Source: Endomicrobiia bacterium
Lineage (GTDB): Bacteria > Elusimicrobiota > Endomicrobiia > Endomicrobiales > Endomicrobiaceae
Direction of reading: 5' to 3'
DNA: 40,581 nt
Assembly (NCBI GenBank): GCA_009776745.1
Contig: WRNH01000009.1
Coordinates: 1-40,581, forward strand
This document shows, piece by piece, positions 6,579 through 34,310 of this stretch. Made by a program: the position numbers and the translations under genes. The notes beneath the pieces were generated by a model. That model searched no databases. It worked only from the letters and a program-made list of their open reading frames with translations, and was not told the origin of the DNA. The stretch's first letter is position 1. The number at the start of each line of letters is the position of its first letter.

Positions 6579-7541
6579 TTAAGATATTCCTTCCGCCAGC
6601 AAATCGCCTAAATCCAAAATCCCGACGGGTTTTCCGTTTTTATCAACAACCGGTATATTGTCGATGCTGTGCTGCTGCAAAATTTTAGCGGCTTCCGCTG
6701 CCATCATCTCCGGAGTAACGGTTCTTGGAGACTTTGTCATAACTTCAGATATTTTTTTATTCAGTATTTTTTGGTTTTTTTGAAGATGTCTTCTCAAATC
6801 TCCGTCTGTAAAAAAGCCGGAAAGCAATCCCTTTGAATCAACTATGCTTGCGGCGCCCATCCTTGTCCCCGTCATCACAAAAAGCGCTTCTTTAACCGTC
6901 GCGCTTTCTTTAATTACGGGATTTTGTTTACCTTTGCGCATTATGTCATTAACTTTCATGGTAAGTTTTTTCCCTATCGCGCCCAAAGGATGAAGCATAG
7001 CAAGATTTTCTCTTTTAAAACCTTTTAAATTCGACACGGTAAGCGCCAATGCGTCGCCCATGGCAAGCATCGCCGTAGTAGACGAAGTAGGCGCCAGATT
7101 ATAAGGGCATGCTTCTTTTTCCACGCTGCAATTGATTATGCAATCGCAGCTGCGCCAGACCAAAGCGTTTATTTTTCCGGTCATTACAATGACTTTTATT
7201 TTCATCCTCTGAAGAACGGGAAGAACTTTCTTTACTTCTTCTGTCTCGCCTGAATAAGAAAGTATTATGACGGCGTCATTTTTCATTACCATACCGATAT
7301 CGCCGTGCAGCCCTTCGGACGGATGCAAAAATGCCGAAGGAATGCCTACTGAAGACATCGTCGCCGAAATTTTTCTGCCTATAAGTCCGGATTTCCCAAG
7401 CCCCATAACGACAACTCTGCCTTTACAGTTTTTTATCATTGCGGCGGCATTATCAAAATTGGAATCCAAATGTTTAATTTGTTCCCGAACGGATCTCGCC
7501 TCAATATCAAGCGTTTCTTTCGCTATTTTAAAATTATCCAT
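6579..7541 (-). CDS. kdsD: Arabinose-5-phosphate isomerase (SIS domain plus tandem CBS domains), KDO precursor synthesis
   Basis: SIS motif VVVMGLGKSGLIGRKI and the C-terminal CBS pair. The ORF-track start at 7583 is TTG. The ATG at 7539-7541 (MDNFKIAKE) has a GAGGT SD. Confidence 0.85.
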   Translation of the reverse strand: MDNFKIAKETLDIEARSVREQIKHLDSNFDNAAAMIKNCKGRVVVMGLGKSGLIGRKISATMSSVGIPSAFLHPSEGLHGDIGMVMKNDAVIILSYSGETEEVKKVLPVLQRMKIKVIVMTGKINALVWRSCDCIINCSVEKEACPYNLAPTSSTTAMLAMGDALALTVSNLKGFKRENLAMLHPLGAIGKKLTMKVNDIMRKGKQNPVIKESATVKEALFVMTGTRMGAASIVDSKGLLSGFFTDGDLRRHLQKNQKILNKKISEVMTKSPRTVTPEMMAAEAAKILQQHSIDNIPVVDKNGKPVGILDLGDLLAEGIS

Positions 7542-7590: not shown

Positions 7591-7674
7591 GCCGTTCTGT
7601 CTTTATTCTAATCGGTCGTGTCAGTGGGACGGAGCAATTTACCGCAAACAGCGCGGTCAATTCCTCCGTCCCCC
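7591..7674 (+). repeat. Copy B of the conserved ~85-bp structured element (GGGACGGAG ... CTCCGTCCC)
   Basis: Near-identical to 1344-1436. It lies about 50 nt upstream of the kdsD/kpsF ATG on the minus-strand transcript. Confidence 0.75.
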
Positions 7675-7715
7675 TTACACTCAGTCGTTGTCGAGCTGCT
7701 GAGCTGCCGCCTTTT

Positions 7716-7750
7716 CCGTATCTTCACTCTTCACTTTTCACTCTTCACTC
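7716..7750. repeat. Low-complexity direct repeat ccgtatcttcactcttcacttttcactcttcactc
   Basis: CTTCACT(C/T)TTCAC units. The GTGAAGATACGG core recurs at 10417-10432 in opposite orientation, and CTTTTCACTTT recurs at 10485-10495 and 29161-29175. Confidence 0.6.
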
Positions 7751-7756
7751 TGCCTT

Positions 7757-8398: not shown

Positions 8399-8510
8399 TT
8401 AATAGGTAAAAGGTAAAAGGTTTTGGTGTTTTCGCTTTGCGAAAACCTATAATAGGTTTCGGCTTTGCCGAAACACAATACCTATTACCTTTTACCTGTT
8501 ACCTTTTACT
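8399..8510. promoter_or_regulatory. Nested palindromic intergenic structure: two tandem near-identical hairpins (GTTTTCGC-TTT-GCGAAAAC at 8428-8446 and GTTTCGGC-TTT-GCCGAAAC at 8456-8474) with a competing central hairpin AAACCTAT-A-ATAGGTTT (8443-8459), flanked by inverted GGTAAAAGGTAAAAGG / CCTTTTACCTGTTACCTTTTAC arms
   Basis: Read directly from the sequence between the hisI stop and the trpF start. The alternative, mutually exclusive pairings have the layout of an attenuator or processing site. No U-tract follows either hairpin. Confidence 0.5.
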
Positions 8511-8898: not shown

Positions 8899-8932
8899 TT
8901 AAACGCTCTCCTTTAAATTCACATCGTATTCT

Positions 8933-10381
8933 CTATTCTCTATTATCTATTATCTGCCGTTTAGTATCTTTATCTTCGCTATGATTTTTTCCCGTTATTT
9001 TTTCCAAAACAGCTTTACCGGTAGCGGTATTTTTAAAAGCTTCCAGCATTCCGCCTACCGCAGTCCCGCCTTTGGAAGAAAACAAATCCATCGCCGATCT
9101 AACGCCTGTATTCACGTCGCCGGCATTCGCGATAACTTTAATATCCGCCCTTCCCAAATTCTGCGCCTGCTCCACGCCGATTTTTTCCTGCGCTTCGACG
9201 GCTCTTATGTTGATAAGGTATTCCTGATATCCTTTATTTTCGCCGATTTTTGCCGCCAAAGTTATCTGGGCTTCTACCGAAGCAAGCTGCATTTTCTTTT
9301 CCGCGTCCGCTCTTGCCGCGCCTTCAAGCTGTATACCTTCGGATTCTTTTGTTTTAGAATAAAGTTTACCTTCCGCCTCAAGTTCAAGCTGTTTTTTAAC
9401 GCCCGCCGCATTGATCGCCAAAGATTCCCTGTGCGCCTCGGATGAAATAATAGTGACGCTCTTATCTTCTTCCGCCTTAACGATATTTGCTTCTTTCTTG
9501 ATCTCGGCAAGTTTGACCTGATTGACTTTTTCAACGGCCATCATCTTTTCGGCAGTAGTCTTAGCCTGTTCCTGAACTTCCTGTTTTGCTTTTTCGTCGG
9601 CAATACCTACTTCTCTCACGACCTGCGCTTTTCTCTGCCCGACTTCCTGAGTGGCCTGCTCTTGTTTGAGCGCGACTTCTTTATTCGCCTCGATTTCGGC
9701 TTCCTGGGCTTTTCTCATATTTTCGGCGACTTCGGTCCTGGATTCCATCTCAATTTTAGATTTTTTCTTATTCATAATATCCGAAATAACTTTTCCGTCT
9801 CTGGTATCGCGGATATCCATCAGTTCGATATTTTTTACCGGAGTTACGCCCCAGGCTTTGAGCTGTTCCTGAACTTCACCCGTAAAAAGAGCGCCGTAAG
9901 TGCTTCTTTCCGACATTATATTTTCAAGATTCGATTTCGCAAGCAAACTTCTTACAACGCCTCTGGTAATGTCGGTAAGCTGTATGAGAAGCTCCGGAAA
10001 CGTTGAAATCCTGTTTGCTGCGATATTTGAATCTTCAATTCTGTAAAAAGCTTTAACGTCCACGACAAAAGGAAGCCTTTCCATATCGTACGCTTCATAG
10101 TTGTTCAAATCTATGTCAAAAACCGAAGTAGGAAGGCTTATTGTCGTAACGCCTATAAAAGGGATCCATGACGGAAATCTGTAAAATGTGTTGCCGTTTC
10201 CGGAATTTTTTCCGTATGAGATCGTATAAGAACGCCTCTGCACGATATCAACCATATTAGTAGGCACGACTCTTCTTAAACTCAGTATCCACTTTATAAT
10301 TACAATTAAGAATATAAAAGCGAATATACCGCCTACTACCAAAACAAACATCACCATATCGGACATTTCTACGCCTTGCAT
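8933..10381 (-). CDS. SPFH/band-7 (flotillin-like, YqiK-type) membrane protein with a long E/A/K-rich coiled coil
   Basis: N-terminal TM helix, an SPFH domain and about 200 aa of EA-repeat coiled coil. ATG at 10379-10381 verified, with a GGGGG SD. Confidence 0.72.
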   Translation of the reverse strand: MQGVEMSDMVMFVLVVGGIFAFIFLIVIIKWILSLRRVVPTNMVDIVQRRSYTISYGKNSGNGNTFYRFPSWIPFIGVTTISLPTSVFDIDLNNYEAYDMERLPFVVDVKAFYRIEDSNIAANRISTFPELLIQLTDITRGVVRSLLAKSNLENIMSERSTYGALFTGEVQEQLKAWGVTPVKNIELMDIRDTRDGKVISDIMNKKKSKIEMESRTEVAENMRKAQEAEIEANKEVALKQEQATQEVGQRKAQVVREVGIADEKAKQEVQEQAKTTAEKMMAVEKVNQVKLAEIKKEANIVKAEEDKSVTIISSEAHRESLAINAAGVKKQLELEAEGKLYSKTKESEGIQLEGAARADAEKKMQLASVEAQITLAAKIGENKGYQEYLINIRAVEAQEKIGVEQAQNLGRADIKVIANAGDVNTGVRSAMDLFSSKGGTAVGGMLEAFKNTATGKAVLEKITGKNHSEDKDTKRQIIDNRE

Positions 10382-10432
10382 TTTGCCCCCTTTTTTTAAT
10401 TACAAAATGAAGATTTGAGAGTGAAGATACGG

Positions 10433-10454
10433 ATTGCGGCTCAGAGGCCGCAAT
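10433..10454. other. Perfect 8-bp stem hairpin ATTGCGGC-tcagag-GCCGCAAT between hisF and the flotillin gene
   Basis: Direct reading. No U-tract follows it, so it is not a canonical intrinsic terminator. Confidence 0.4.
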
Positions 10455-10487
10455 GACGACTTCGCGAAAACGCTCTATCTCTGCTTT

Positions 10488-12857: not shown

Positions 12858-12876
12858 TGTTTACTCCCAATATTAA

Positions 12877-12947
12877 CGACAATTACAAATTACGAATTAC
12901 GAATTACAAATCAACGGCAAAGGCAAAAACGGCAATTACGGATATAC
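12877..12947. repeat. Tandem AATTAC(R)AATTACG repeats (cgacaattacaaattacgaattacgaattacaaatcaacggcaa ... aacggcaattacgg)
   Basis: Direct reading. Related to the reverse complement of 1438-1483. It sits upstream of the small ORF and hisB on the minus-strand transcript. Confidence 0.6.
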
Positions 12948-14260: not shown

Positions 14261-17200
14261 TTATCTCTCAATTACAAGTTTGCCTTTTTTGGTTTTGCCG
14301 CCGGATTTTATGTGATAAATGTAAACTCCGGAAGCAGCTCTGTAGCCGGCATTGTTTTCTGCATACCATGTAAACGTTTCGTCCGTTATTTTTTTATCGA
14401 AAACAAGTTCTCCGGCTATATTGTAAATTTTTATTTCCGCGCCCTGTTTAAGTCCCGTAAATGTTATGCCCGTATTGCCGTGTCTTGAAGGTTTGTAAGG
14501 ATTCGGATATGCCACAAATCTTCCGGCAGCTATCTGCGCGTAAAAATCGGCGTTAAGCGCGGAAGCGACGACGGAATTGAAAGCAAGCGAAGGCTGGAAA
14601 AAATCGTATTCTGAAGAAACCGGCGCCGCGACATAACTTCTTGAGTAATACATATCGGCGGTATATCTGCCGTCTCCTGCCGTAATCACTGTTTGAGTGC
14701 TCCCTGAAACCGCGTCATATACGCTGACTTTTATATTGCCCATTCCTTTGGCATTAAACAAAACTCTGCCGCTAAGCATATATTTCTCAAAAGCCGTAAA
14801 ATTCTGAGTTATATCCGAATCCGAAGCCGTTAATAAAAAGTTTGCGGGTTCAAAAGCAAAATTTTCCGACACCGGAGTGATCATATAGCTTACTCCCTGC
14901 ATTACTCCGATTTCATATAAACCGTTAACGGTTTTCGTCGCAGTAGACTTATCCGCAGAGTTGTATATCTGCATTACAGCGGACGCGTTTGAACCGTCTT
15001 TGGCATTGAGCAGCGTCCCGCTGACAACGCTTGAGCCGGTATGGATCAGCAAAACGTAAACGCCCGTTTTTGTGAGAATTGCTTCTATCGTTACGTCAGC
15101 AATGCCGCCGCTTTCCGATTCAACTGTAATGCTTTGTTCGGGATACGCTTTGTCCGGGAGTCCGGTTTCGGAATTATAAAAGGCTGCTTTTATATTGCCG
15201 GCGCCGTAAGGCGAAATGTCCGCTCCGGCAAGATGAATGTAACTTTTCACGCCGTTTAATGTTGACGACGGGTAATTTACCTCAAAAGAAAACGGAAGAA
15301 TTTTATATTGAGTGACGTCGATCGCCGGAGGCGAAGAAGGGACGATCGTAAAGCCGTCGGAATAAACGTCCATAATAAGCGCATAATTGTTTCCGTCGCA
15401 ATACATTGTCCTTAACGAGTCATATTTAAAATTCGTAAAATCCTGCGTAACGGCGGTCGTCATCGGAGGAACTTTCATGCTGCCTACGGGCGCGCCGCCG
15501 GAAACGGTTTTAAAATTGACCGTTTTATACGAATCGGTCGAAGGGTTAAACGCCATATAGCTTTTTTGTCCGCCTTTATTCATGACGCAGAAAGATTCAT
15601 TGTCGGCGCGGACGCCGGTGTCTACCGTGCCGTATTTATTAAAAAAGTTGATAAACTGATAAGAAAAAGTCAGAGAACTGCCCTCCTCGGCGGCAAAACC
15701 TCCGGCTATAAAATCGCTTACGGCGCCGGCGCCGTCAAATAAAGATTTATATCTCAGCCAAATATCTTTCCAAAGATTCGCGTTAGCTCCTAAGTCTGCA
15801 CCGGCAAGCATCTCGCTGTAATAACTTTGGGCATAAGGCGCGTCGTATCCCAGATAAAGCATCGAAGGAGTAAGCGGCAAAATCTGTATGCCTTTTATAG
15901 TTTGCGATATTACAGGCGTAAAATAAATATTATATTCAACCCAATTATCCCAAAGTATGCCTACGCCTTTATGCGCGTACGGCGTTCCTCCGTAAATATC
16001 TCCGGAAGTATCGAAGTAATATTCTTTTACGGCCTCATACTCCGTGGTATATCCGTATGCCCCGAGATCCGTCATCGCCTGATTGTTTGACGCCAAACCC
16101 CACAGATATATTCCCGCCCACGCGTTCATGGCTTCGGAAGAAGACTCTTGGTCTATTCCTCTGTCGTTAGTGCCGCCGGCTCCGTTAGCCCATGAATGCC
16201 CTTCATAAACGTCAAAGTTTCTTAAAAACGGAAAATCCAGATCATTGTGCGCGGGGTTATAAATATTTTTCACTATCATGTCAACCATGCCTTTATACTC
16301 GCCGGCGTCCGCAAAGTTCTTATCAAACAATGCCAGGATCGCCGACGCGTATATAAAGTATCCGTAATGAAAATGATGGTCAGCGTAATTTTCGGAACCG
16401 TAAGACGGATTCCGGCCTATAAGTCCGCCCCAGTTTGAATCATAACCGAAATATTTGCTGCTTTGCCCGTTATACGTATACCAAATCCGCAATATCTTTC
16501 TTAATTGTTCGATCATCCTGTTTCTGGCGGCAATATCGCCGAACTGATGAAAAACAGGAATCAGATTTGCGGCTTTTGCAAAAGCCTTACCTGCCCAGTA
16601 TGTATCACTCTGCGCGCCTTCCGGGTCAAAATTTTTGTCGGTATTGATATAATTCTGCATTATGTTTTTTGAAGTATCGGGAACTTCATAAGTGAGATTA
16701 GGCATAATGCCGTAAAATTTATTTTCCGTAACGAACGAAGAGCCGGCGCCGACTTTCATCGTCCCTCTTATAGTTTTGAAATTATACGTATCCGGCTTTA
16801 ACGGCGCGGAAGTATTTTTCCATTGATGAGGAAAAAGAGCAAAAACTGTCCCGCCCGGAAATCCGGCGCGTTTTGCCGTTGTTGTAAAATTAAAAGTCGT
16901 GGAAACTTTGGAGTTCTGCCTGTCAAAAACATATGAAACTTTTGTATCTGTAATAAAATTATACGCATACTGTCTGTAATCATTGAAAATCGTTACCGCA
17001 TTATTTTTCGTCGCAGTATCGTCAGGTCCCGCGGTTATAAGCGCCAGCGAGATATACCTGTCCGAAGAATCAAAAGAAATATCGATATTCAATCCGCCGA
17101 CTACAAAAGAAGTGTTTTCCGGAGCATAAACCGCGTAATAAACTACTCTTCCGTTAATGTCGGGCGAAGTTTTTACCAGTATGCAATCGCCCTGCGCCGT

Positions 17201-17836
17201 AGTGCCGGAAAGAGCATTTCCGTTTAAGTCGTACGCGTAACTTGGCGTATTATTAAATGAAGATATCGTCGGATCTAAATTCTCCGAAAATTCATTATAC
17301 GTAAAAACAAAACCTTTTCCGATCGTAGTTTTGATCCATTTTGTATTGTCATCGCTGTCAACGCACAGGAAAGTCGCAGACCAGTCGGAATAACCGTCTA
17401 AAAGACTTTCGGAAGTCTGAAGCTGCACGGAAGCGGGACGCTTTATACCCCTTATTCTGGCGATAAATTGCGGATTATAATCATTTACCACCCTATCCGC
17501 CATTGATGCTGACGTCGACGCAGGCAGCGGATAGCCTAATACGTAACCGTTTCCGGCCGCCGCCCCCGTACTATTTGTATTAAGGTTTACTAACCACGGT
17601 GAGGCTGACATCCTGAGGGAATAATTATGATAAGGATTTTTGATATAAATTGAGCCGAACCATCTGTTTGTCGGATATGGAAAACTTACGTTTGAGGTCG
17701 TTCTCGTATTCTGCATCGGAGAATTGTATGAACCTATGCTTCCCTTACCGCCGGGAACAGGGGCCGCAAAAATCTCTGCCGCAAAAAACAATACCGCCGC
17801 AAACGCTGAAAAAATCTTCACCGCTTTCGATGTCAT
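14261..17836 (-). CDS. Secreted glycoside hydrolase family 81 endo-beta-1,3-glucanase with a C-terminal T9SS/Por-type (FlgD-Ig-like) sorting domain
   Basis: Signal peptide MTSKAVKIFSAFAAVLFFAAEIFA. GH81 signature motifs ADHHFHYGYF and the catalytic E-S-S-S-E (IDQESSSEAMNAWAG). C-terminal about 80 aa (AYPNPYKPS ... KIYNIAGELV ... ASGVYIYHIKSGGKTKKGKLVIER) match the T9SS type A C-terminal domain. ATG at 17834-17836 with an AAGGTG SD. The ORF-track start at 17857 is upstream of it. Confidence 0.7.
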   Translation of the reverse strand: MTSKAVKIFSAFAAVLFFAAEIFAAPVPGGKGSIGSYNSPMQNTRTTSNVSFPYPTNRWFGSIYIKNPYHNYSLRMSASPWLVNLNTNSTGAAAGNGYVLGYPLPASTSASMADRVVNDYNPQFIARIRGIKRPASVQLQTSESLLDGYSDWSATFLCVDSDDNTKWIKTTIGKGFVFTYNEFSENLDPTISSFNNTPSYAYDLNGNALSGTTAQGDCILVKTSPDINGRVVYYAVYAPENTSFVVGGLNIDISFDSSDRYISLALITAGPDDTATKNNAVTIFNDYRQYAYNFITDTKVSYVFDRQNSKVSTTFNFTTTAKRAGFPGGTVFALFPHQWKNTSAPLKPDTYNFKTIRGTMKVGAGSSFVTENKFYGIMPNLTYEVPDTSKNIMQNYINTDKNFDPEGAQSDTYWAGKAFAKAANLIPVFHQFGDIAARNRMIEQLRKILRIWYTYNGQSSKYFGYDSNWGGLIGRNPSYGSENYADHHFHYGYFIYASAILALFDKNFADAGEYKGMVDMIVKNIYNPAHNDLDFPFLRNFDVYEGHSWANGAGGTNDRGIDQESSSEAMNAWAGIYLWGLASNNQAMTDLGAYGYTTEYEAVKEYYFDTSGDIYGGTPYAHKGVGILWDNWVEYNIYFTPVISQTIKGIQILPLTPSMLYLGYDAPYAQSYYSEMLAGADLGANANLWKDIWLRYKSLFDGAGAVSDFIAGGFAAEEGSSLTFSYQFINFFNKYGTVDTGVRADNESFCVMNKGGQKSYMAFNPSTDSYKTVNFKTVSGGAPVGSMKVPPMTTAVTQDFTNFKYDSLRTMYCDGNNYALIMDVYSDGFTIVPSSPPAIDVTQYKILPFSFEVNYPSSTLNGVKSYIHLAGADISPYGAGNIKAAFYNSETGLPDKAYPEQSITVESESGGIADVTIEAILTKTGVYVLLIHTGSSVVSGTLLNAKDGSNASAVMQIYNSADKSTATKTVNGLYEIGVMQGVSYMITPVSENFAFEPANFLLTASDSDITQNFTAFEKYMLSGRVLFNAKGMGNIKVSVYDAVSGSTQTVITAGDGRYTADMYYSRSYVAAPVSSEYDFFQPSLAFNSVVASALNADFYAQIAAGRFVAYPNPYKPSRHGNTGITFTGLKQGAEIKIYNIAGELVFDKKITDETFTWYAENNAGYRAASGVYIYHIKSGGKTKKGKLVIER

Positions 17837-17885
17837 CTTTGCACCTTCTTTTTCCAAAAAATTTACTCCGAAATTGTCAATTGCG

Positions 17886-18010
17886 TCTCTCTAAAAACCT
17901 ATCTAAAGCGGTGTCATTCCCGTGAAAACGGGAATCTATTTTTATCGTTATCGTCGGACACATTTAAATACCCGTTTTCACGGGTATGACAAAATTGGGT
18001 TTTTAGAGAA
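17886..18010. mobile_element. MITE-like element (~125 bp) with terminal inverted repeats TCTCTCTAAAAACC / GGTTTTTAGAGAA and internal mirror hairpins (TTCCCGTGAAAACGGGAA ... ACCCGTTTTCACGGGT)
   Basis: The termini are reverse complements (13 of 14). The same termini bound a second element at 25717-25858, and a solo copy lies at 33815-33828. No ORF inside, and the whole element is palindromic. It sits between the lexA stop and the GH81 promoter region. Confidence 0.65.
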
Positions 18011-18090
18011 ACCCAATTGCATGTCTCTGATAACCCTGTTTTGTCAATGACATACGGCTGATTCAGCCGCAGCATATGCGTCGGCAGACT

Positions 18091-18684
18091 CTAGTTCTTG
18101 TACTCCCTTAAAAGGTATATTAATTTCCCCAGTATTTTATAATTTTTAGGATAGACCGGAGGGTATGCCATATTTGTAGACATCAGGCATACTTTGCCGT
18201 CGGTTTTACTGTAAATTTTTATTGCCGCTTCGCCGTCGATCAAAGCAACGGTGATATCGCCGTTTGCTATTTGACTGCTTTTGGATATCACGACGGTATC
18301 GCCTTCAACGATCCCCGAAGGTTCCATACTGTCTCCCCGGACTTTAAGCGCGAAACACTCCCTGCTCCTTGTTATATCGGTATTTATGTAAACATAATCC
18401 TGTACGTCTTCAACCGGTTCAAGAAATGTTCCGGCGTGAACATTGCCCAAAACGGGCACCGGCGTAAATTTCTGACGGCCGGAAATCTCTATGCCGCGGG
18501 CTACGGATCCTTTTTTACTCAAATATCCTTTTCTCTCTAAAATTTTTAAATACTTTTGCACGGGCGCTATCGTGATACTGAATTTTGCCGCGATCTCTCT
18601 TATCGTCGGCATTGTGCCGTTTTCAAGATAAAATTCTTCAATAAAATCCATGACTGTCTGCTGTTTTTCCGTAAGTTTTTCCAT
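18091..18684 (-). CDS. lexA: LexA repressor (S24 peptidase)
   Basis: N-terminal wHTH (LTEKQQTVMDFI..FY.ENG.MPTIREIA). The Ala-Gly cleavage site region (VHAGTF), catalytic Ser (RGDSMEP) and Lys (AAIKIY) are present. ATG at 18682-18684 with a GGAGG SD. The ORF-track start at 18759 adds 25 unlikely N-terminal residues. Confidence 0.85.
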   Translation of the reverse strand: MEKLTEKQQTVMDFIEEFYLENGTMPTIREIAAKFSITIAPVQKYLKILERKGYLSKKGSVARGIEISGRQKFTPVPVLGNVHAGTFLEPVEDVQDYVYINTDITRSRECFALKVRGDSMEPSGIVEGDTVVISKSSQIANGDITVALIDGEAAIKIYSKTDGKVCLMSTNMAYPPVYPKNYKILGKLIYLLREYKN

Positions 18685-19618: not shown

Positions 19619-20137
19619 ATGGATATAAACGCATTAAAAAAAATACAGTACGGGATGTACATAATTTCATCGGCAGCCGAAGGAAAAATGAGCGCGCAGC
19701 TTTCCAATACCGTTTTTCAGATAACGGCAGACCCCGTGCAATTTGCAATAAGCATTTCAAAACAAAATTTTACTTATGAGCTTATAGAAAAATCTGGAAA
19801 GTTTGCCATTACGGCATTATCCGAAGACGCTCCCTTTGAGTTTATGGGCAAATTCGGATTTAAAAGCGGAAGAAGCATAAATAAATTTGAAAAGGTCAGC
19901 CATGAAATTTCAGCAGCGGGAATCCCTGCGGTATTAGATTTTGCGGCTGCCGTTTATGAAGCGGAAACGGTAAAAAAAATTGATATGGATACGCACGTTG
20001 TTTTTATAGGCAAAATTACCGATATGAAAATTATCGACGATTCAAAAAACGCCATGACATATGATTACTACCGCAAAGTCAAAGGCGGCCTTACAGCCAA
20101 AAACGCCCCGACTTATACAAAGACAAATAAAATATAA
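19619..20137 (+). CDS. Flavin reductase-like (FMN-binding split-barrel) domain protein
   Basis: 172 aa. Pattern YGMYIISS....AQLSNTV.QIT.DP..FAISI typical of the PF01613-type flavin reductase domain. Confidence 0.65.
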   Translation: MDINALKKIQYGMYIISSAAEGKMSAQLSNTVFQITADPVQFAISISKQNFTYELIEKSGKFAITALSEDAPFEFMGKFGFKSGRSINKFEKVSHEISAAGIPAVLDFAAAVYEAETVKKIDMDTHVVFIGKITDMKIIDDSKNAMTYDYYRKVKGGLTAKNAPTYTKTNKI

Positions 20138-20213
20138 AATATAAAAAGTAAAAAAAACGAAGCGTTTTTTGCAGTTGATATTTTATATTTTACTTTTTTA
20201 TATTTTATATTTT
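20126..20213. terminator. Bidirectional intrinsic terminator (AAAAAACG-AAG-CGTTTTTT at 20151-20170) embedded in an ~85-bp AT-rich palindrome (aaatataaaatataaaaagtaaaa ... ttttacttttttatattttatattt)
   Basis: Lies between the convergent flavin reductase gene (+) and ybaB (-). The arms are reverse complements of each other. Confidence 0.7.
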
Positions 20214-25679: not shown

Positions 25680-25716
25680 AGTTGGTACCAAAAAAAACGA
25701 AACAATAGCGCCGGGG

Positions 25717-25858
25717 TCTCTCTAAAAACCCATGTATGTCATTCCGGAAGGCCGTTATTGCTTTTTCCAACGATAACGGCAAACGCAGATTCCCGTTGGA
25801 ATTTACCCTCGAGTGCCTAGGGTGTGGACGGCGCGGCGCGGATGATGTTTTTAGAGAG
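25717..25858. mobile_element. MITE-like element (~142 bp) with termini TCTCTCTAAAAACC / GTTTTTAGAGAG and a different internal module (nested hairpins GCCGTTAT ... ATAACGGC and TCCAACG ... CGTTGGA)
   Basis: Same terminal inverted repeat as 17886-18010. The right terminus overlaps the last two codons and the TAA stop of the MBL-fold hydrolase gene (stop at 25851-25853). Confidence 0.65.
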
Positions 25859-26489
25859 TCCCTGTTCGCTGTTTCATATACGGATTATGCCGCAATTCGT
25901 TTGCCAGCGTAGTACGGCTTCCGTGCCCGGGATAAATAACGGTTGAAGGATCCAGGCGTTTTATTTTTTCAAGAGAATTCATAAGCTCGTCAAAGCTGCC
26001 TCCGGGAAAATCCGTGCGGCCTATTGTTCCGGCAAACAAAGTATCTCCGGTAATAAGAAACCCGTCAAACAAAAGGCAAATCCCGCCTTTTGTATGCCCT
26101 GGAGTATGAATAACTTTAAACTTTGCAAAAGAAAGCTCTACTTCCTGATTATCTTCAAGCTGTATTTCCGGAGTTCTTACGGATTCGGGATTACCGAAAA
26201 TTGCGGAGGCATTGCCGTAAGGGTCTGCAAGCATCTGAATTTCATATTTGTGCGCCGCCAAAGGAATTTTATATTTTTCCCGTATTTGCTCGTCGGAAAA
26301 AATGTGGTCGTAATGTCCGTGCGTATTTACAAGCATCTCGGGCTTTAAGCCTTTTTTTTCTATTTCGCTTATAACTTTATCGCCGTCCTCGCCGGGATCT
26401 ACAATAAGCGCTTTCAATGTGCCGATGTCGTAAACGATATAACAGTTCGCTTCTATTTGCCCTGAAATTATTTTATCCGTTTTTATCAT
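25851..26489 (-). CDS. MBL-fold metallo-hydrolase (glyoxalase II-like)
   Basis: HxHxDH motif (NTHGHYDHI) and downstream His/Asp ligands. The ATG overlaps the pgpA stop in an ATGA arrangement. Confidence 0.75.
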   Translation of the reverse strand: MIKTDKIISGQIEANCYIVYDIGTLKALIVDPGEDGDKVISEIEKKGLKPEMLVNTHGHYDHIFSDEQIREKYKIPLAAHKYEIQMLADPYGNASAIFGNPESVRTPEIQLEDNQEVELSFAKFKVIHTPGHTKGGICLLFDGFLITGDTLFAGTIGRTDFPGGSFDELMNSLEKIKRLDPSTVIYPGHGSRTTLANELRHNPYMKQRTGTL

Positions 26490-27651: not shown

Positions 27652-29163
27652 TCACGCATCAATTTCAGCTTTTATTTTATATCCGTCATTATTTTTTATT
27701 ATTATTTTATAGAACTTTCCGCATTCTAAAGTTTTATCATATAATATTTCCGTGCTTCCGTCTATTTCCGGAGCCTGAAAAACGCTTCTGCCGGAAATCA
27801 AATACTTTTTCCCATGCTTTACGCATTTTTCTGCAAGAAATTCCGTCCTGCCGTTTTGTCTTTTTCGGGCTGCCGAGCCGCCGGACTGATTAACTTCCGC
27901 AGTTAAAGCGTCAATCTTTGCTTTAAAAACATCATATTGCGCTTTTTCAACTTCAACTCTTCTGCGCGCTGCAAGCTCACGGCCGATATGCCTTTTTAAT
28001 TTTGAAGAAGCGGCTTCTTTCTGATCGGAATATTCAAATACTCCCGCATACTGGAAATATCCCGTTTTAATAAAATCTGTCAGCTCTTTTACGTCTTTAT
28101 TTGTTTCGCCCGGAAAACCCGTTATAATTGACGTTCTTAAAACGATGTCCGGAATTTTATTTTTTATCTTTTCAATTACCCGTCTTGTGTTCAACGGTCT
28201 TTTCATCGCGGAAAGCACCTTTCTGCTTATGTGCTGCACCGGAATGTCAATATACTTACATATATTTTTGTACTCCTTAAAAACATCCAGAAACGGATCC
28301 GTTATGCTTGACGGATAAGCGTACATTAACCTTATCCACTTAAAATCAATTTTTGCAAGCTTTGCAAGCAGTTTATCTAAAGCAAATGCGTCGTATATAT
28401 CCAAACCGTAAGAAGTCGTATCCTGAGCTACCAGTATAAGCTCTTTCACGCCGGCCTGAGCCAAAGATTTTGCTTCCGCGTACAGAGAATCTATTGTACG
28501 GCTTGTAAATTTTCCCCTCAAATCCGGAATTATACAAAAACTGCATCTATGATCACACCCTTCGGCAATTTTTAAATAAGCTGAAGGCAAATGAGAAGAC
28601 AGGATCCTTTGTTTTGAATCGTTTAATCCGCCGGGCAAAAGCAAATCATTTGCCAAAAGCGGATTATCCGCTTTTTTATTTAAAATCAAAGCGGGAAGCT
28701 TATCCAAAGCTCCCGTTCCCGTATAACCGTCTATCAAAGGAAATTTTTCAGTTATTTTTTCTTTAAGAAGCTGCGGCAGACAGCCGGTAACATAAACCTT
28801 AATGTTTTTCTTCTTCTTTAAAAGCAGAACATTTTTTATGCATTCTTCGGACTCAACCCTTGCGTCGTGAATAAAAGAACAAGTATGTATAACTACAGCG
28901 TCGGCATCGCTTAAACCGGCGCTTGGCAGATAACCGTTATTTTTTAAAATCCCGAGCAGATACTCGGCTTCTACCGTATTTTTCGGGCAGCCTAAAGTTA
29001 TTACCGCAACCTTTACAGGCGAAGCTGAAAGAGGAGAACGGAAACCGGAATTAACAGCGCCGTATTGCTTTGCGGATTTTTCGCTTCCGCCCATAATGAC
29101 AAGGCTTATCCTTGCTTTTTCCGCTGATTCGTAATTTTTCCTGTCTTTATTTCCATTTTCCAC
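27652..29163 (-). CDS. rimO: Ribosomal protein S12 methylthiotransferase (radical SAM, MTTase N-domain plus TRAM)
   Basis: KVAVITLGCPKN MTTase N-domain and the radical-SAM CxxxCxxC (CDHRCSFC). C-terminal TRAM-like region. The ORF-track start is GTG at 29161-29163 with no SD. The first ATG is at 29092-29094. The true N-terminus is uncertain. Confidence 0.78.
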   Translation of the reverse strand: MENGNKDRKNYESAEKARISLVIMGGSEKSAKQYGAVNSGFRSPLSASPVKVAVITLGCPKNTVEAEYLLGILKNNGYLPSAGLSDADAVVIHTCSFIHDARVESEECIKNVLLLKKKKNIKVYVTGCLPQLLKEKITEKFPLIDGYTGTGALDKLPALILNKKADNPLLANDLLLPGGLNDSKQRILSSHLPSAYLKIAEGCDHRCSFCIIPDLRGKFTSRTIDSLYAEAKSLAQAGVKELILVAQDTTSYGLDIYDAFALDKLLAKLAKIDFKWIRLMYAYPSSITDPFLDVFKEYKNICKYIDIPVQHISRKVLSAMKRPLNTRRVIEKIKNKIPDIVLRTSIITGFPGETNKDVKELTDFIKTGYFQYAGVFEYSDQKEAASSKLKRHIGRELAARRRVEVEKAQYDVFKAKIDALTAEVNQSGGSAARKRQNGRTEFLAEKCVKHGKKYLISGRSVFQAPEIDGSTEILYDKTLECGKFYKIIIKNNDGYKIKAEIDA

Positions 29164-29172
29164 TTTTCACTT

Positions 29173-30141
29173 TCAACTTTGTCTTTTTAAGACTACGGTA
29201 TTAACATCCTGCACTGCGCCTGCGTCAACATCAATTTTAATGCCGTTAAAAAAAACGTCAACTCCGGGAGTATATCCTATTTTGACATTAAATTCGTCAT
29301 TTGCTTTCCAGGTCTTCTTCGTTCCTTTGACTATAGTTCCCTGAAAAAATTCCCTGCCGTCGCCCTCAACTCTTATCCATACGTTTTCAATAGCAATGAT
29401 TTCAAGTTCCTGCTTGTCATTTTGCTGTTTTACGGCAGGAACTGCCGCTGTCTGAATCTCGTTTACATTCCGTATAGCGGCGGATTCGGATTTTGGAGCC
29501 GGCTGCGCGACGATCTGTTCATGCTTTTGAGGAAAAGGCTTCAGCGCTTCATTCGCGCCGTTTTCCGTATCCTTTTTATTACTTTCAGCTGATATTTCCA
29601 CGGGCATGTTCCGCTCTTTAAGTTCCCGTTCTCTTTGCTCGCGAAGTTCCTGCATCTTTTGAATTTGCATTTTTTTTTGTTCTATGGCAGGAATTCTGTC
29701 GGGATTTTCTTCGGTGAATGCCGAAATATTTTTATTCATATATAAAAAAGCCGCGCATAAAACCAAAGCTATAAAAACCGTAATAAATAACTTTTTTAAA
29801 TCGCCGCCGCTTTCTTTGGCAGATTTTGCTTTAGGCTTTTTTGATATAAAACCGTTCTTGTTTTTTTCATTTTTTGCGGAACCGCCGCCGTCCTCGTTTC
29901 CTTCGCTCTCATTTTTTCTTTTTTCATATTGGGCGAGCAAATCATCTCCGTTAAGCCCCAAATATCTGGCATAAGACTTAACAAAACTTTTATAATAAAT
30001 TTCCGCGGAAAACACCGTCTCATCGCCGTCTTCGATAGCCGAAATATATTTTTCCTGAATTTTTGTCGCTCTGTGGACTTTGTCTAAATCCAAGCCCTGT
30101 TCTTCACGTTTATCTTTTAAAATTTTCCCGAGTTCTTTCAT
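29173..30141 (-). CDS. rodZ: Cytoskeleton protein RodZ (N-terminal XRE-type HTH, single TM, C-terminal DUF4115-like domain)
   Basis: N-terminal HTH (LGKILKDKREEQGLDLDKVHRATKI), a basic/acidic linker, the TM helix LFITVFIALVLCAAFLYM and a beta-rich C-terminus. ATG verified. Confidence 0.7.
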   Translation of the reverse strand: MKELGKILKDKREEQGLDLDKVHRATKIQEKYISAIEDGDETVFSAEIYYKSFVKSYARYLGLNGDDLLAQYEKRKNESEGNEDGGGSAKNEKNKNGFISKKPKAKSAKESGGDLKKLFITVFIALVLCAAFLYMNKNISAFTEENPDRIPAIEQKKMQIQKMQELREQRERELKERNMPVEISAESNKKDTENGANEALKPFPQKHEQIVAQPAPKSESAAIRNVNEIQTAAVPAVKQQNDKQELEIIAIENVWIRVEGDGREFFQGTIVKGTKKTWKANDEFNVKIGYTPGVDVFFNGIKIDVDAGAVQDVNTVVLKRQS

Positions 30142-31320: not shown

Positions 31321-33495
31321 TTAGGAATTCATGTCCAGATACTCATTTATTTTATCATAATTTATCTGCCATTTGTTAGTGCCTTCGGGTTTTGTTATAA
31401 AACCTTTCATTTCAAGAACGCTCAATATATTAGTCGCGCGGGCAGAACTTCCGAAATTCGCTTTAAGCAGATCCTGCGAAACTCTTTTGCGTTCGTTAAT
31501 AAGAGTAAGCGCCGGAATCAAATCTTTCAAGCTTTTTTCCTCTATAAGGTCAAGTTTTTCGCCCGACACTTCAACGGCTATAGGCTCGTATATCCTCGGA
31601 AAATTTTGACCGTTTATAAACTCGATTATCTTTTCCGCCTCTTTTAACGATACGTACGCCCCCTGCAAACGCGCCGGTCTTGCTTCTCCCGGAGGCAAAA
31701 ACAGCATATCTCCTTTTCCGATCAGATCTTCGGCTCCAAGCGCGTCCAATATAACGCGGGAATCTATTTTTGACGTTGTCTGAAACGACAGCCGCGCCGG
31801 AAAATTAGCTTTGATTACTCCGGTAATAACATTTACCGACGGCCTTTGCGTCGCAAGTATCAAATGGATCCCTACTGCTCTTGCCATTTGGGCAAGCCTT
31901 TGCACGGAATCTTCGATCTCCTTTTGCGCGACAAGCATCAAATCCGCGAGTTCGTCTATTATTACCACAATATAGAATTCTTTTTCCCTTCCTTCCTCGA
32001 TCATTTTATTATTGTAATCTTCAATATTTCTGACCATTTCTCCGGCAAACTTCATATATCTTTCTTCCATGACGGTTACAAGTTTCTTTAACGCCGACGC
32101 GGCTTCTCTGGGGTTTGTAATAATATCAGCGTCTGCGGCGCAAGAGCACGGATTATAAAGATGCGGAATATCTTTGTAAATAGGCATTTCAACGCGTTTC
32201 GGGTCTATCAGCATAAATTTAACTTCATCAGGGCGCGCTTTATATAAAATTGAAAGTATTATGGTATGGATGCCGACGCTTTTTCCCGAGCCGGTAGCTC
32301 CGGCAATAAGCAAATGAGGCATTGCCGCCAGATTTGCGACATAGCCTTCTCCGTCGGTCGTTTTTCCGAGCGCCAGAGAAAGAAGCGATTTCGAATTCTC
32401 AAAAGCGCGGCTTTCCAAAATCCCGCGAAGCCCCACTATAACGCTTTCGGGATTTGGCGCTTCTATGCCCACGGCGGCTTTTTCGGGTATAGGCACGACT
32501 CTTATTGACGATGTCCTCATCGTAAGAGATATATTGTCAATAATATTTGAAACCGCCTGTATTTTTACGCCCGGAGCCAAAACTAAATCATAACGCGTAA
32601 CTACGGGGCCCGGTATAATATCTTTTACTTCAGCGGCAATATCGAAATCCGCAAGCGTTTTTCTTAAAAGCTCGGCTCTTTCAAGAAGCTTGTCTTTATT
32701 TGTTTCAAAACTTACAGCCGGATCATTTTTCAATATATTCGTCGAAGGCAGCTTGTAGTCAAAACTCTTGCTTTCGATTTTTTCCGGTTTATGTTTTTCT
32801 TTTTCCGCCTTTTCTTTGACGACCTTTTCATCTTTTTCTTTTTTGCCGACTATATTAGGCTTAACGGGTTCGGGTTTTGAAACAACCGTAGGCTCCTCCG
32901 TCCTGACAACGGGAGGTTCCGGCTTTCTTTCCAAAACATTAGGCTTAAGTTTTTCTTTAGCGTTTTTATCTTTTTGGGAATCTTCCGTAAACCCTTTGAT
33001 AAAATGATATATTGCCGAGCTTAACGAAATTCTGAAAAGTTTTGCCGCGGAATATATAAAAATTATCGCCGTGACCGAAAATCCCAGCGTTATGCCCAAA
33101 AGCTGCTCAAAAAAAGGAAATAACTTATCTCCTATCCAGCCGCCGTAGGTGTTGATTTCAAACAAAAGCCCCGAGAATGAAAACAAAACCGCTCCCGAGA
33201 TCATACAGAAAACCGACCATATAAAATCCATTCTCCCTCTCAATTCAAGGGATTTGCTTATCTGCACTATAAAAAACCAAAGAAATATGAAAGGAAGAAT
33301 ATAAGTAGCGGTGCCGAACATTTGAAACATTATATTTGTAAACCCTTTGCCTATCATGCCGGAACTGTCAGGCACTATCACGGCATACGCGCATACAAAC
33401 GCCGCCAAAACAAAAAACAGGGCGACAACTTCCCTGTTTCTGTTTGCATTATTCATTTTTTGTTTTTTATTTTTTGTTTTATTTTCTCTAGCCAC
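31321..33495 (-). CDS. ftsK: DNA translocase FtsK (N-terminal 4-TM domain, Pro/Lys/Glu-rich linker, RecA-like motor, C-terminal gamma domain)
   Basis: Walker A LIAGATGSGKSVGI and Walker B IVVIIDELADLM. The ORF-track start is GTG at 33493-33495 with an AGAGGA SD. An in-frame ATG lies at 33456. Confidence 0.9.
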   Translation of the reverse strand: MARENKTKNKKQKMNNANRNREVVALFFVLAAFVCAYAVIVPDSSGMIGKGFTNIMFQMFGTATYILPFIFLWFFIVQISKSLELRGRMDFIWSVFCMISGAVLFSFSGLLFEINTYGGWIGDKLFPFFEQLLGITLGFSVTAIIFIYSAAKLFRISLSSAIYHFIKGFTEDSQKDKNAKEKLKPNVLERKPEPPVVRTEEPTVVSKPEPVKPNIVGKKEKDEKVVKEKAEKEKHKPEKIESKSFDYKLPSTNILKNDPAVSFETNKDKLLERAELLRKTLADFDIAAEVKDIIPGPVVTRYDLVLAPGVKIQAVSNIIDNISLTMRTSSIRVVPIPEKAAVGIEAPNPESVIVGLRGILESRAFENSKSLLSLALGKTTDGEGYVANLAAMPHLLIAGATGSGKSVGIHTIILSILYKARPDEVKFMLIDPKRVEMPIYKDIPHLYNPCSCAADADIITNPREAASALKKLVTVMEERYMKFAGEMVRNIEDYNNKMIEEGREKEFYIVVIIDELADLMLVAQKEIEDSVQRLAQMARAVGIHLILATQRPSVNVITGVIKANFPARLSFQTTSKIDSRVILDALGAEDLIGKGDMLFLPPGEARPARLQGAYVSLKEAEKIIEFINGQNFPRIYEPIAVEVSGEKLDLIEEKSLKDLIPALTLINERKRVSQDLLKANFGSSARATNILSVLEMKGFITKPEGTNKWQINYDKINEYLDMNS

Positions 33496-33569: not shown

Positions 33570-33776
33570 TTATTTAAGAGATATTCTGTAGCTGTAATCC
33601 TGCTGCACAATATTGACTTTATTTTCTCTTGCAAGCCAGCCCAAAGCAAGATACAGCATTGTGTTCGACAAGCCTAAATTCGCCTTAATCTTTATAGGAG
33701 ACGACTCTCCGTTTTCAAGCAAATAATTCCAAACCTCTCCCGCCGCAAATCCTACTCTGTCAATCATATCAGCCAT
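33570..33776 (-). CDS. Small winged-helix (DUF2582-like) protein
   Basis: 68 aa. The ATG at 33774-33776 (MADMIDRV) has an AAGGGG SD. The ORF-track start at 33806 is GTG. A single wHTH-sized fold is predicted. Confidence 0.4.
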   Translation of the reverse strand: MADMIDRVGFAAGEVWNYLLENGESSPIKIKANLGLSNTMLYLALGWLARENKVNIVQQDYSYRISLK

Positions 33777-33814
33777 TATTTTACCCCTTAAAAATACAAT
33801 TTTCACTTTAGATA

Positions 33815-33828
33815 GGTTTTTAGAGAGA
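33815..33828. repeat. Solo MITE terminus GGTTTTTAGAGAGA, the exact reverse complement of the TCTCTCTAAAAACC terminus
   Basis: Perfect 14-mer. I found no partner terminus within about 300 bp. It lies between the accB stop and the small wHTH gene. Confidence 0.5.
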
Positions 33829-33848
33829 TCCGATTATTATTTGCCGTT

Positions 33849-34310
33849 TTAGACTTTTTCAACTTCAAACAAATCCTGCCCCGAATTTACGGGTTTTCCG
33901 TTTTCCGCCAAAATTTTCACGATCTTAACTTTGAACGTGGCTTTTATTTCATTCATAACTTTCATAGCTTCGACAATACATAATGTTTTGCCGGTCTCAA
34001 CAATATCTCCCTCTTTTGCAAACGCGGGAGACGACGGAGACGGAGATTTATAAAATACTCCCGTTATCGGAGATTTTATAGTTTCCCCCGAAACTGCCGC
34101 TTCATGTTTAGGCTGCTGTTCAGTCTGAACTTCAGCCGCAGCCGCCTGCGTTTTTACAGGCGCTGCCGCAGCAAATTGTTTTACTTCATCAGGGTTTTTT
34201 CTCTTAATGCAAAGTTTATAATCTTTGGAATTGACTTCCAATTCTTCGATTTTTTCATCTTTCATTATCTCATAAAGAGATTTCACTTTGTCTTTAATGT
34301 CATTTGCCAT
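33849..34310 (-). CDS. accB: Acetyl-CoA carboxylase biotin carboxyl carrier protein
   Basis: Ala/Gln-rich linker and a C-terminal biotinyl domain with EAMKVMNEI (biotinyl-Lys motif). The ATG at 34308-34310 (MANDIKDKV) is used rather than the upstream alternative start. Confidence 0.82.
   Translation of the reverse strand: MANDIKDKVKSLYEIMKDEKIEELEVNSKDYKLCIKRKNPDEVKQFAAAAPVKTQAAAAEVQTEQQPKHEAAVSGETIKSPITGVFYKSPSPSSPAFAKEGDIVETGKTLCIVEAMKVMNEIKATFKVKIVKILAENGKPVNSGQDLFEVEKV

Follow-up and report, generated by a model that had tools for sequence, protein, structure and literature searches.

The MITEs described as Correia (CREE, NEMIS), ERIC and RUP elements are ~100-260 bp long, lack coding capacity, and are bounded by terminal inverted repeats (TIRs) and a short target-site duplication (TSD). 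They are present in many intergenic copies that often abut genes, would fold into a long hairpin if transcribed, and occur as size variants produced by internal deletion or insertion. In the case of Correia elements the duplication is TA. REPINs consist of two short imperfect inverted palindromes, each placed after a fixed motif (GTAG in the REPs of E. coli), which together form a larger hairpin in strictly intergenic positions; they are not known to have separate terminal inverted repeats or a target-site duplication. Some groups of the IS5 family make 2-4-bp duplications and have ends in which GG or GA is followed by a pyrimidine-rich stretch and an A-run. The inverted repeat of Correia elements measures 51 bp, and in Neisseria the 20-bp inverted repeats dRS3 (ATTCCC-N8-GGGAAT) flank RS spacers, the unit dRS3-RS-dRS3 being known as NIME (PMC1797815).

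Here I describe a repeat family found in a 40,581-nt stretch of Endomicrobiia DNA (the window, meaning the whole stretch that was analysed), where an earlier note made from the letters alone had marked a palindromic, MITE-like element between lexA and a GH81 gene. This element, hereafter copy 1, very likely belongs to a family of non-autonomous DNA transposons (MITEs) carried by termite-gut Endomicrobia. The family is real, ordinary in kind and previously undescribed, and no description of MITEs in Endomicrobia was found in the literature searched. It combines small size, absence of coding, conserved TIRs, a TSD, and dispersed copies that include near-identical ones; it is like the Correia, ERIC and RUP elements in every respect listed above, but shows no sequence similarity to them. 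Membership of the Correia class was rejected: the family has 17-nt termini starting with GGG, a 4-bp AATT TSD, a mirror-symmetric interior of the dRS3 type and an uncultured Elusimicrobiota host, and a BLAST search of copy 1 against gonococcal chromosomes returned a 26-nt dRS3 module as the sole match. The family shares the arrangement of REPINs, with GTCAT as the fixed motif, but was not assigned to the REPIN/RAYT class because it has TIRs and a TSD. The IS5-type pattern, as given in ISfinder summaries, resembles the family's GGGTCTCTCTAAAAACC and is a lead only. Of the family's features, only the dRS3-like mirror interior might open up something new.

Copies and termini in the window

The number of matches to the 14-mer TCTCTCTAAAAACC is far above chance: allowing up to two mismatches, the 40.6-kb window holds six matches against 0.45 expected, a number reached in 0/100 shuffles. 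Three matches are exact (17886 (+), 25717 (+) and 33815 (-)), and two are the right ends of copies 1 and 2, with one mismatch (17998-18011 (-)) and two mismatches (25846-25859 (-)), respectively, which contradicts the idea that both copies have identical termini. The sixth, at 7009, is intragenic and looks like chance. A profile of termini taken from other genomes only recovered exactly these five termini in the window and no more. The inverted repeats themselves are real, but they are 17 nt long and not 14, extending outward by GGG/CCC, which sets copy 1 at 17883-18014 (about 130 bp, palindromic) and copy 2 at 25714-25862 (Table 1). Copy 1 reads AATT, GCGTCTCTCTAAAAACC...GGTTTTTAGAGAAACCC, AATT, and its right end together with the flanks does fold into a small hairpin, AATTGGGTTT-ttagag-AAACCCAATT, as proposed. 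Its lack of coding capacity was likewise borne out: the only open reading frames that cross it encode 42-53 aa.

Table 1. Positions of the element features in the window.
Feature	Positions	Strand	Basis
Left copy of putative 4-bp TSD (AATT), copy 1	17879-17882		Read from the sequence; direct flank 4-mers across the family
Left TIR of copy 1 ('A-end'), GCG+TCTCTCTAAAAACC	17883-17899	+	Column conservation 0.82-1.0 over 17 nt; profile match
GTGTCAT followed by hairpin H1, ATTCCCGT-GAAA-ACGGGAAT (dRS3-type module)	17911-17935	+	Fits ATTCCC-N8-GGGAAT
Central spacer with conserved ATCGTCGG at 17950-17957	17936-17967		Alignment with six subfamily copies from termite metagenomes
Hairpin H2, GTCATACCCGT-GAAA-ACGGGTAT	17968-17991	-	Mirrors H1, apart from a compensated swap of T/A for A/T
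Right TIR of copy 1 ('B-end'), GGG+TTTCTCTAAAAACC	17998-18014	-	One mismatch; conservation; profile match
Right copy of putative 4-bp TSD (AATT), copy 1	18015-18018		Sequence; family flank repeats; register test
Copy 2, degenerate element of 149 bp	25714-25862		Right TIR with two mismatches; no recognisable TSD
Truncated left end, AATC then GGA TCTCTCTAAAAACC TATCTAAAGTG	33804-33835	-	Profile match; 11-nt interior matches A-end of copy-1 subfamily

Copy 1 belongs, in a slightly deleted form, to a 137-bp subfamily. A few substitutions set it apart from six subfamily copies found on other contigs, as does an 11-bp deletion in the central spacer relative to the canonical 137-bp form, the identity being 88-92% with 20 nt of unrelated flanks counted in. 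The two ends can be told apart in this subfamily, the A-end reading ...AACCTATCTAAAGYGGTGTCATTCCCG and the B-end ...AACCCAATTTTGTCATACCCG.

The genes of the window are nearly all on the minus strand and of a housekeeping kind, and the genome has a G+C content of ~40%. Copy 1 lies between lexA, whose stop codon is at 18091, and the start of the GH81 gene, which encodes a protein of 1198 aa carrying a type IX secretion tail. The LexA protein is 100% identical to that of a MAG labelled 'Endomicrobia bacterium', with Endomicrobium as the source of the next matches. In relatives, lexA is followed by a radical-SAM gene (with or without HNH or DinB genes) and hisD, while the order in the window is lexA, element, GH81, hisD. 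The lexA-hisD interval (14261-18090) is thus variable in comparison with relatives L001, L138 and L139, and the GH81 gene is present in the window only; the glucanase may have been acquired horizontally, and copy 1 marks the edge of the variable interval that carries it. The regions downstream of lexA in four relatives hold other genes and no motif, and have diverged too far for an empty site to be placed to the base.

Copy 2 is an old, degenerate element and folds more weakly (-56.2 kcal/mol, z = -2.6) than the 181-nt region round copy 1 (-69.6 kcal/mol, z = -9.0). Its interior had been thought to differ from that of copy 1; it is in fact partly homologous to the reverse complement of copy 1, with two 32-nt stretches that are 81-84% complementary, and is related to the variants of loci L124 and L135 in reverse orientation. 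It sits between a gene for an MBL-fold hydrolase (25851-26489 (-)) and one for a XerC-like recombinase, and the MBL-fold gene takes its last three codons and its TAA stop from the right TIR of copy 2: the protein ends in ...NPYMKQRTGTL in the window as opposed to ...NPYLNGNYDRY in relatives, and the codons for GTL and the stop fall within the right terminus. Two relatives have the MBL-xerC junction without the element, in one case with a 110-nt spacer that carries a different hairpin and CTCCACT heptamers (L142) and in the other with the two genes overlapping (L144), although both are too diverged to set the insertion point to the base. Copy 2 has thereby been shown to have separated the MBL-fold gene from xerC and to have rewritten the C-terminus of the MBL protein.

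An integron attC site and a Xer site next to the recombinase gene were considered as candidates, and both were rejected. The termini TCTAAAAAC/GTTTTTAGA do not fit the R''/R' boxes RYYYAAC...GTTRRRY, and the flanking genes are housekeeping genes and not cassettes; moreover, the adjacent 296-aa tyrosine recombinase is conserved beside the MBL gene in a relative that has no element.

A solo terminus had been reported at 33815-33828. The terminus is there, but it is not a bare motif, since 11 further nt of interior (TATCTAAAGTG, 33804-33814) are attached to it, giving an element part of 28 nt (33804-33831). This third copy is a 5' remnant, and lies between the BCCP gene, whose stop codon is at 33849, and a small wHTH gene upstream of ftsK that starts at 33776.

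Family termini, flanking duplications and mobility

Inverted pairs of TCTCTCTAAAAACC delimit 24 distinct full elements with measurable flanks, all of them non-coding and between 116 and 263 bp long. Alignment of 78 distinct ends showed conservation from -3 to +13 round the 14-mer with a sharp drop outside, so the family terminus is 17 nt long, GGGT(C/T)TCTCTAAAAACC, and inverted at both ends (per-column conservation 0.82-1.0, C or T at position +1, profile GGGTYTCTCTAAAAACC). Across genomes, no other part of the family is as well conserved.

The four nucleotides outside the termini are AATT in most copies. As AATT is palindromic, a duplication is not demonstrable from copy 1 alone, and flank pairs other than AATT are the informative cases. 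The pairs comprised 13 cases of AATT/AATT, one of TTAA/TTAA, ATTT/ATTT at two independent loci, and also TTAC/TTAT and AATA/AATT; the exceptions to AATT are direct and not inverted repeats. Many copies are furthermore located inside period-7 tandem arrays such as (AATTYGT)n, for which the family shows a preference. This permitted a register test in which the element was removed in silico: lag-7 identity was 71/119 after removal of exactly four further nucleotides, as compared with 19-44/119 at all other offsets between 0 and 8. That the heptamer register is restored at offset 4 indicates that insertion duplicated 4 bp. The target-site duplications that the earlier note had asked to be looked for are consequently present, both as direct 4-bp flank repeats and in the register test.

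All 24 elements are intergenic, none overlapping an ORF of at least 120 aa by more than 15 nt, and several lie within 5 nt of two convergent gene ends. Elements are also found in tandem with one AATT common to both. Copies of one 137-bp variant that lie in three different flank settings are 100% identical to each other, and a fourth copy differs only by one replaced hairpin module; such identical copies point to recent proliferation. Decay is equally apparent, in a solo 18-mer AATT-GGGTCTCTCTAAAAACCC-AATT (L112), in a partly deleted right terminus (L121) and in the 28-nt fragment of the window. Across 50 kb of the closest accessible relative genome there was one decayed copy only, with a damaged right terminus and no left one. 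Among the fetched loci no exact pair of filled and empty sites was found, and apparent 'spans' turned out to be tandem elements.

An alternative reading takes the 14-mer to be a conserved protein-binding or promoter motif, the palindromes around it being incidental. In its favour, the motif stands 3 nt before a pilin-like gene in three genomes of MS-series Endomicrobiia, its position being orthologous in all of them, and three termini of the window lie 37-50 nt upstream of start codons. The motif is, however, present in both orientations relative to the downstream gene and also between convergent genes, is absent from the orthologous junctions in relatives, and forms inverted pairs that are spaced by 116-263 bp and accompanied by 4-bp duplications; no sigma-70-like promoter was detected round copy 1. 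These observations also led to rejection of a promoter or Shine-Dalgarno function for the 14-mer, and a mini-ORF, ATGGGTTTTTAG, was discarded as an artefact of the YAT in the search pattern. The pairing and the TSD data have already largely refuted a motif without mobility, which I regard as extremely improbable. The earlier note had named confinement to its three loci and conservation at orthologous loci as signs of such a motif. It occurs beyond these three loci and relatives lack it at orthologous positions, and on both counts mobility is the supported reading.

For the MITE family, the proposed route is that a transposase acting in trans would recognise the termini and make a 4-bp staggered cut at AATT-like targets, and that insertion would then duplicate the 4 bp. 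Such targets would be abundant in the period-7 arrays (AATTACG, AATTYGT and others) that fill the intergenic spacers of Endomicrobia, and these arrays do supply AATT targets. The proposal of a MITE-like family mobilised in trans thus gained its TIRs, its TSD, its dispersed and identical copies and the relatives with empty junctions, but not its transposase: neither the window nor ~240 kb of element-bearing loci contained an autonomous element in which such termini bound a transposase gene, and mobilisation in trans is thus an inference. Candidates for an autonomous partner were rejected in each case, namely a 3-kb pair of termini in L087 and a 6.6-kb pair in L121 as chance or degenerate matches, and a non-MITE interior at the end of contig L080 for want of any other copy.

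Hairpins of the interior

Inside the TIR, the order is a spacer, GTGTCAT, a short GC-rich hairpin, a central A/T-rich segment carrying CGTCGTC/GACGAC, and the first hairpin again in inverted form. Read inward from each end, GTCAT is followed directly by a perfect hairpin of 6-9 bp, mostly with a GAAA loop; the stem begins with the AT of this motif. The stems are of 16 different kinds and pair perfectly in every case (e.g. ATTCCCGT/ACGGGAAT, ATACCGGC/GCCGGTAT and ATTGCGGG/CCCGCAAT), which implies that pairing has been kept by compensatory change. Two of the subfamilies show the same difference between their ends, with ATT... at one and ATA... at the other, a swap that keeps each local hairpin and breaks the long-range pairing between the two. 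This mirror-symmetric arrangement argues for a role as DNA at both ends and not as one RNA strand. The maintenance of pairing through compensatory changes, together with the Neisseria dRS3 type of the modules, suggests that the internal hairpins may be bound or used as DNA, e.g. as subterminal sites for a transposase or a host factor, instead of being passive filler.

H1 fits the dRS3 pattern, and positions 17913-17938 of the window are identical (26/26, BLAST) to a dRS3 copy of Neisseria gonorrhoeae from a cluster of five GTCATTCCC-N8-GGGAAT repeats. Among the 148 loci fetched, GTCATTCCC-N8-GGGAAT was confined to the element-bearing loci and the Neisseria locus. The likeness to NIMEs goes further, as modules of the family fit GTC-ATTCCC-N8-GGGAAT-C, stand in inverted pairs round a 30-45-nt spacer richer in A/T, and are variable and swapped. 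There are differences, too: many Endomicrobia stems are not ATTCCC/GGGAAT (e.g. ATACCGGC, ATTGCGGG and ATCCTGAAG, and H2 also deviates), and a conserved 17-nt TIR with TSD surrounds the units, which were not seen in long arrays and belong to another phylum. As judged from these sequences, the likeness appears to be one of parts and not of membership.

Hairpin modules of this kind also exist outside the elements. A solo GTCAT-hairpin, GTCATTGCGGC-CTCTGA-GCCGCAATCC, is located at 10430-10457 (-) between a stop codon and a short heptamer run and has no MITE termini, and similar solo modules are found downstream of lexA in relative L001.

The interior gives some weight to a rival view, namely that of an intergenic mosaic resembling NIMEs or REPINs, in which a site-specific or HUH/DEDD recombinase would act on the GTCAT-hairpins and the 17-mers would be yet another palindromic module. 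The succession of GTCAT-hairpin, spacer and hairpin-ATGAC is the same as in Neisseria dRS3-RS-dRS3, and the 26/26 match, the confinement of the GTCATTCCC pattern to element-bearing and Neisseria loci and the unbroken pairing of all 16 stems fit this view, as do modules swapped or inserted between otherwise identical copies, tandem elements with one common AATT, and the solo GTCAT-hairpins without termini in the window and in relatives. However, the direct 4-bp flank duplications and the restored heptamer register are a signature of staggered-cut transposition which, to my knowledge, has not been reported for REPINs or NIMEs. Within the family, conservation across genomes is highest in the outer 17-nt termini, long dRS3 arrays were not encountered, and no RAYT or IS110-type gene was noticed, in a survey that was not systematic, near any copy. 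I therefore consider a mosaic of this kind quite unlikely.

On the other hand, simple IS-derived MITEs do not usually have a mirror-symmetric interior of dRS3-type hairpins. An explanation that joins the two, a hitherto undescribed hybrid in which a miniature transposon of the TIR/TSD type has as its entire cargo a dRS3-RS-dRS3 unit, otherwise known only from the NIMEs of Neisseria, and prefers dedicated period-7 AATT arrays for insertion, is unlikely but would have the wider consequences. If it held, GTCAT-hairpins of the dRS3 type would be functional DNA palindromes across phyla (e.g. sites of a conserved recombinase) that can spread by transposition; the family would then make the long-unexplained origin and function of NIME-like repeats tractable, and might also point to a new IS family working with subterminal hairpins. 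The presence of dRS3-type hairpins inside a TIR/TSD element so far from Neisseria would, if it goes beyond convergence, bear on what such palindromes do.

The hairpins and the stable fold of copy 1 also bear on whether the element is a functional structured RNA, which the earlier note had kept as an option, or a terminator or attenuator cassette, retained for the control that its hairpin would exert on 3' end formation, stability or read-through of its neighbouring genes, here lexA and GH81. GAAA loops and compensatory stem changes would suit an RNA, but the symmetry of the element, with the GAAA loop reading inward from each end, favours neither strand. H1 with its T-run scores as terminator-like and is the sole such hairpin at copy 1, yet it does so on the + strand, opposite to both lexA and GH81. 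All copies are intergenic and often only a few nt from stop codons, including those between convergent genes; the same junctions in relatives are, however, free of the element, and decayed and truncated copies are common. A search of Rfam 15 gave no match at the gathering threshold in the window, with only generic miRNA-precursor hairpins below threshold. An RNA or terminator function of the family is thus very improbable, although single copies could have been exapted for it. Copy 1 would in any case contribute a very stable hairpin to any transcript that reads through from lexA to GH81.

Distribution and neighbouring repeats

The earlier note had asked for a count of the motif elsewhere, and it was recovered at unrelated intergenic loci of several Endomicrobia genomes and of termite metagenomes. 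A genome scan with the pattern TCTCTCTAAAAACCYAT, using one genome per species, listed 97 matches, of which 16 were from Endomicrobia/Endomicrobiia assemblies (Endomicrobium spp., Ca. Parendomicrobium reticulitermitis, the MS499/MS502 genomes and Cu122P5bin43); the remaining listed matches were single ones in unrelated taxa, as chance predicts. In metagenomes, GGGTCTCTCTAAAAACCYA was found in 26 stretches, 24 of them from four related sample sets (Ga0099364, Ga0209628, Ga0209629 and JGI20166J26741), and two of the contigs were identical to contigs of the termite-gut Endomicrobia MAG Cu122P5bin43. Viral contigs gave 10 single matches at chance level only, and in phage and plasmid collections nothing matched but the 26-nt dRS3 module, in two gonococcal chromosomes that are listed there among the plasmids. 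The latter are the PLSDB entries NZ_CP119140.1 and NZ_CP119142.1, which are chromosomes of Neisseria gonorrhoeae of 2.17 Mb.

Many matches lie within about 150 nt of a contig end, as is explained by multicopy repeats breaking assemblies. For annotators of Endomicrobia MAGs the family is useful to know, since it breaks assemblies, creates spurious small ORFs, rewrites gene ends (such as the tail of the MBL-fold protein) and may have misled binning. As a marker specific to this lineage, it also shows recent activity of mobile DNA in a group that is studied for genome reduction and horizontal transfer.

Contig L041 of a MAG labelled Oscillospiraceae, a further match of the genome scan, is the same as metagenome contig L115 (Ga0099364_10065499) and carries a copy-1-type element. 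The FIST protein of this contig is 89% identical to proteins of Endomicrobia MAGs, so that the 'Oscillospiraceae' contig is probably mis-binned, perhaps with the help of the repeat.

In MS-series Endomicrobiia, the family termini bound non-coding stretches of 500-800 bp (L025 2853-3652, L022 ~484-977 and L035 ~478-981). These stretches end just before the start of the pilin-like gene (MIKNVGQTLTEF...) in all three genomes and, being non-coding, were rejected as the autonomous partner.

Period-7 arrays are present in the window at 1452-1468, 7721-7751, 8400-8421, 8479-8509, 8927-8955, 12881-12911, 20127-20146, 20178-20213, 29150-29180 and 33456-33480. Their units vary (ATTTGTA, TCTTCAC, TAAAAGG, AATTACA, TTTCCAC and others), and they fill many intergenic spacers. 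They flank MITE copies in termite metagenome contigs and are also present in relatives without the MITE.

A second repeat family in the window consists of two 87-nt copies (1357-1443 and 7595-7681) with 93% identity, which contain an internal palindrome, GTGTCAGTGGGACGGAG...CTCCGTCCCCCAGACAC. They are intergenic, sit beside heptamer arrays and do not have the 17-nt termini. Lastly, the motif (AATTACR)n followed by AATCAACGGCAAAGGCAA is present at 12873-12925 and 1443-1475 of the window; it recurs in several unrelated spacers and is common to relatives, where it is found at 1548-1590 and 13305-13351 of L001/L002 and at 17333-17375 of L147.
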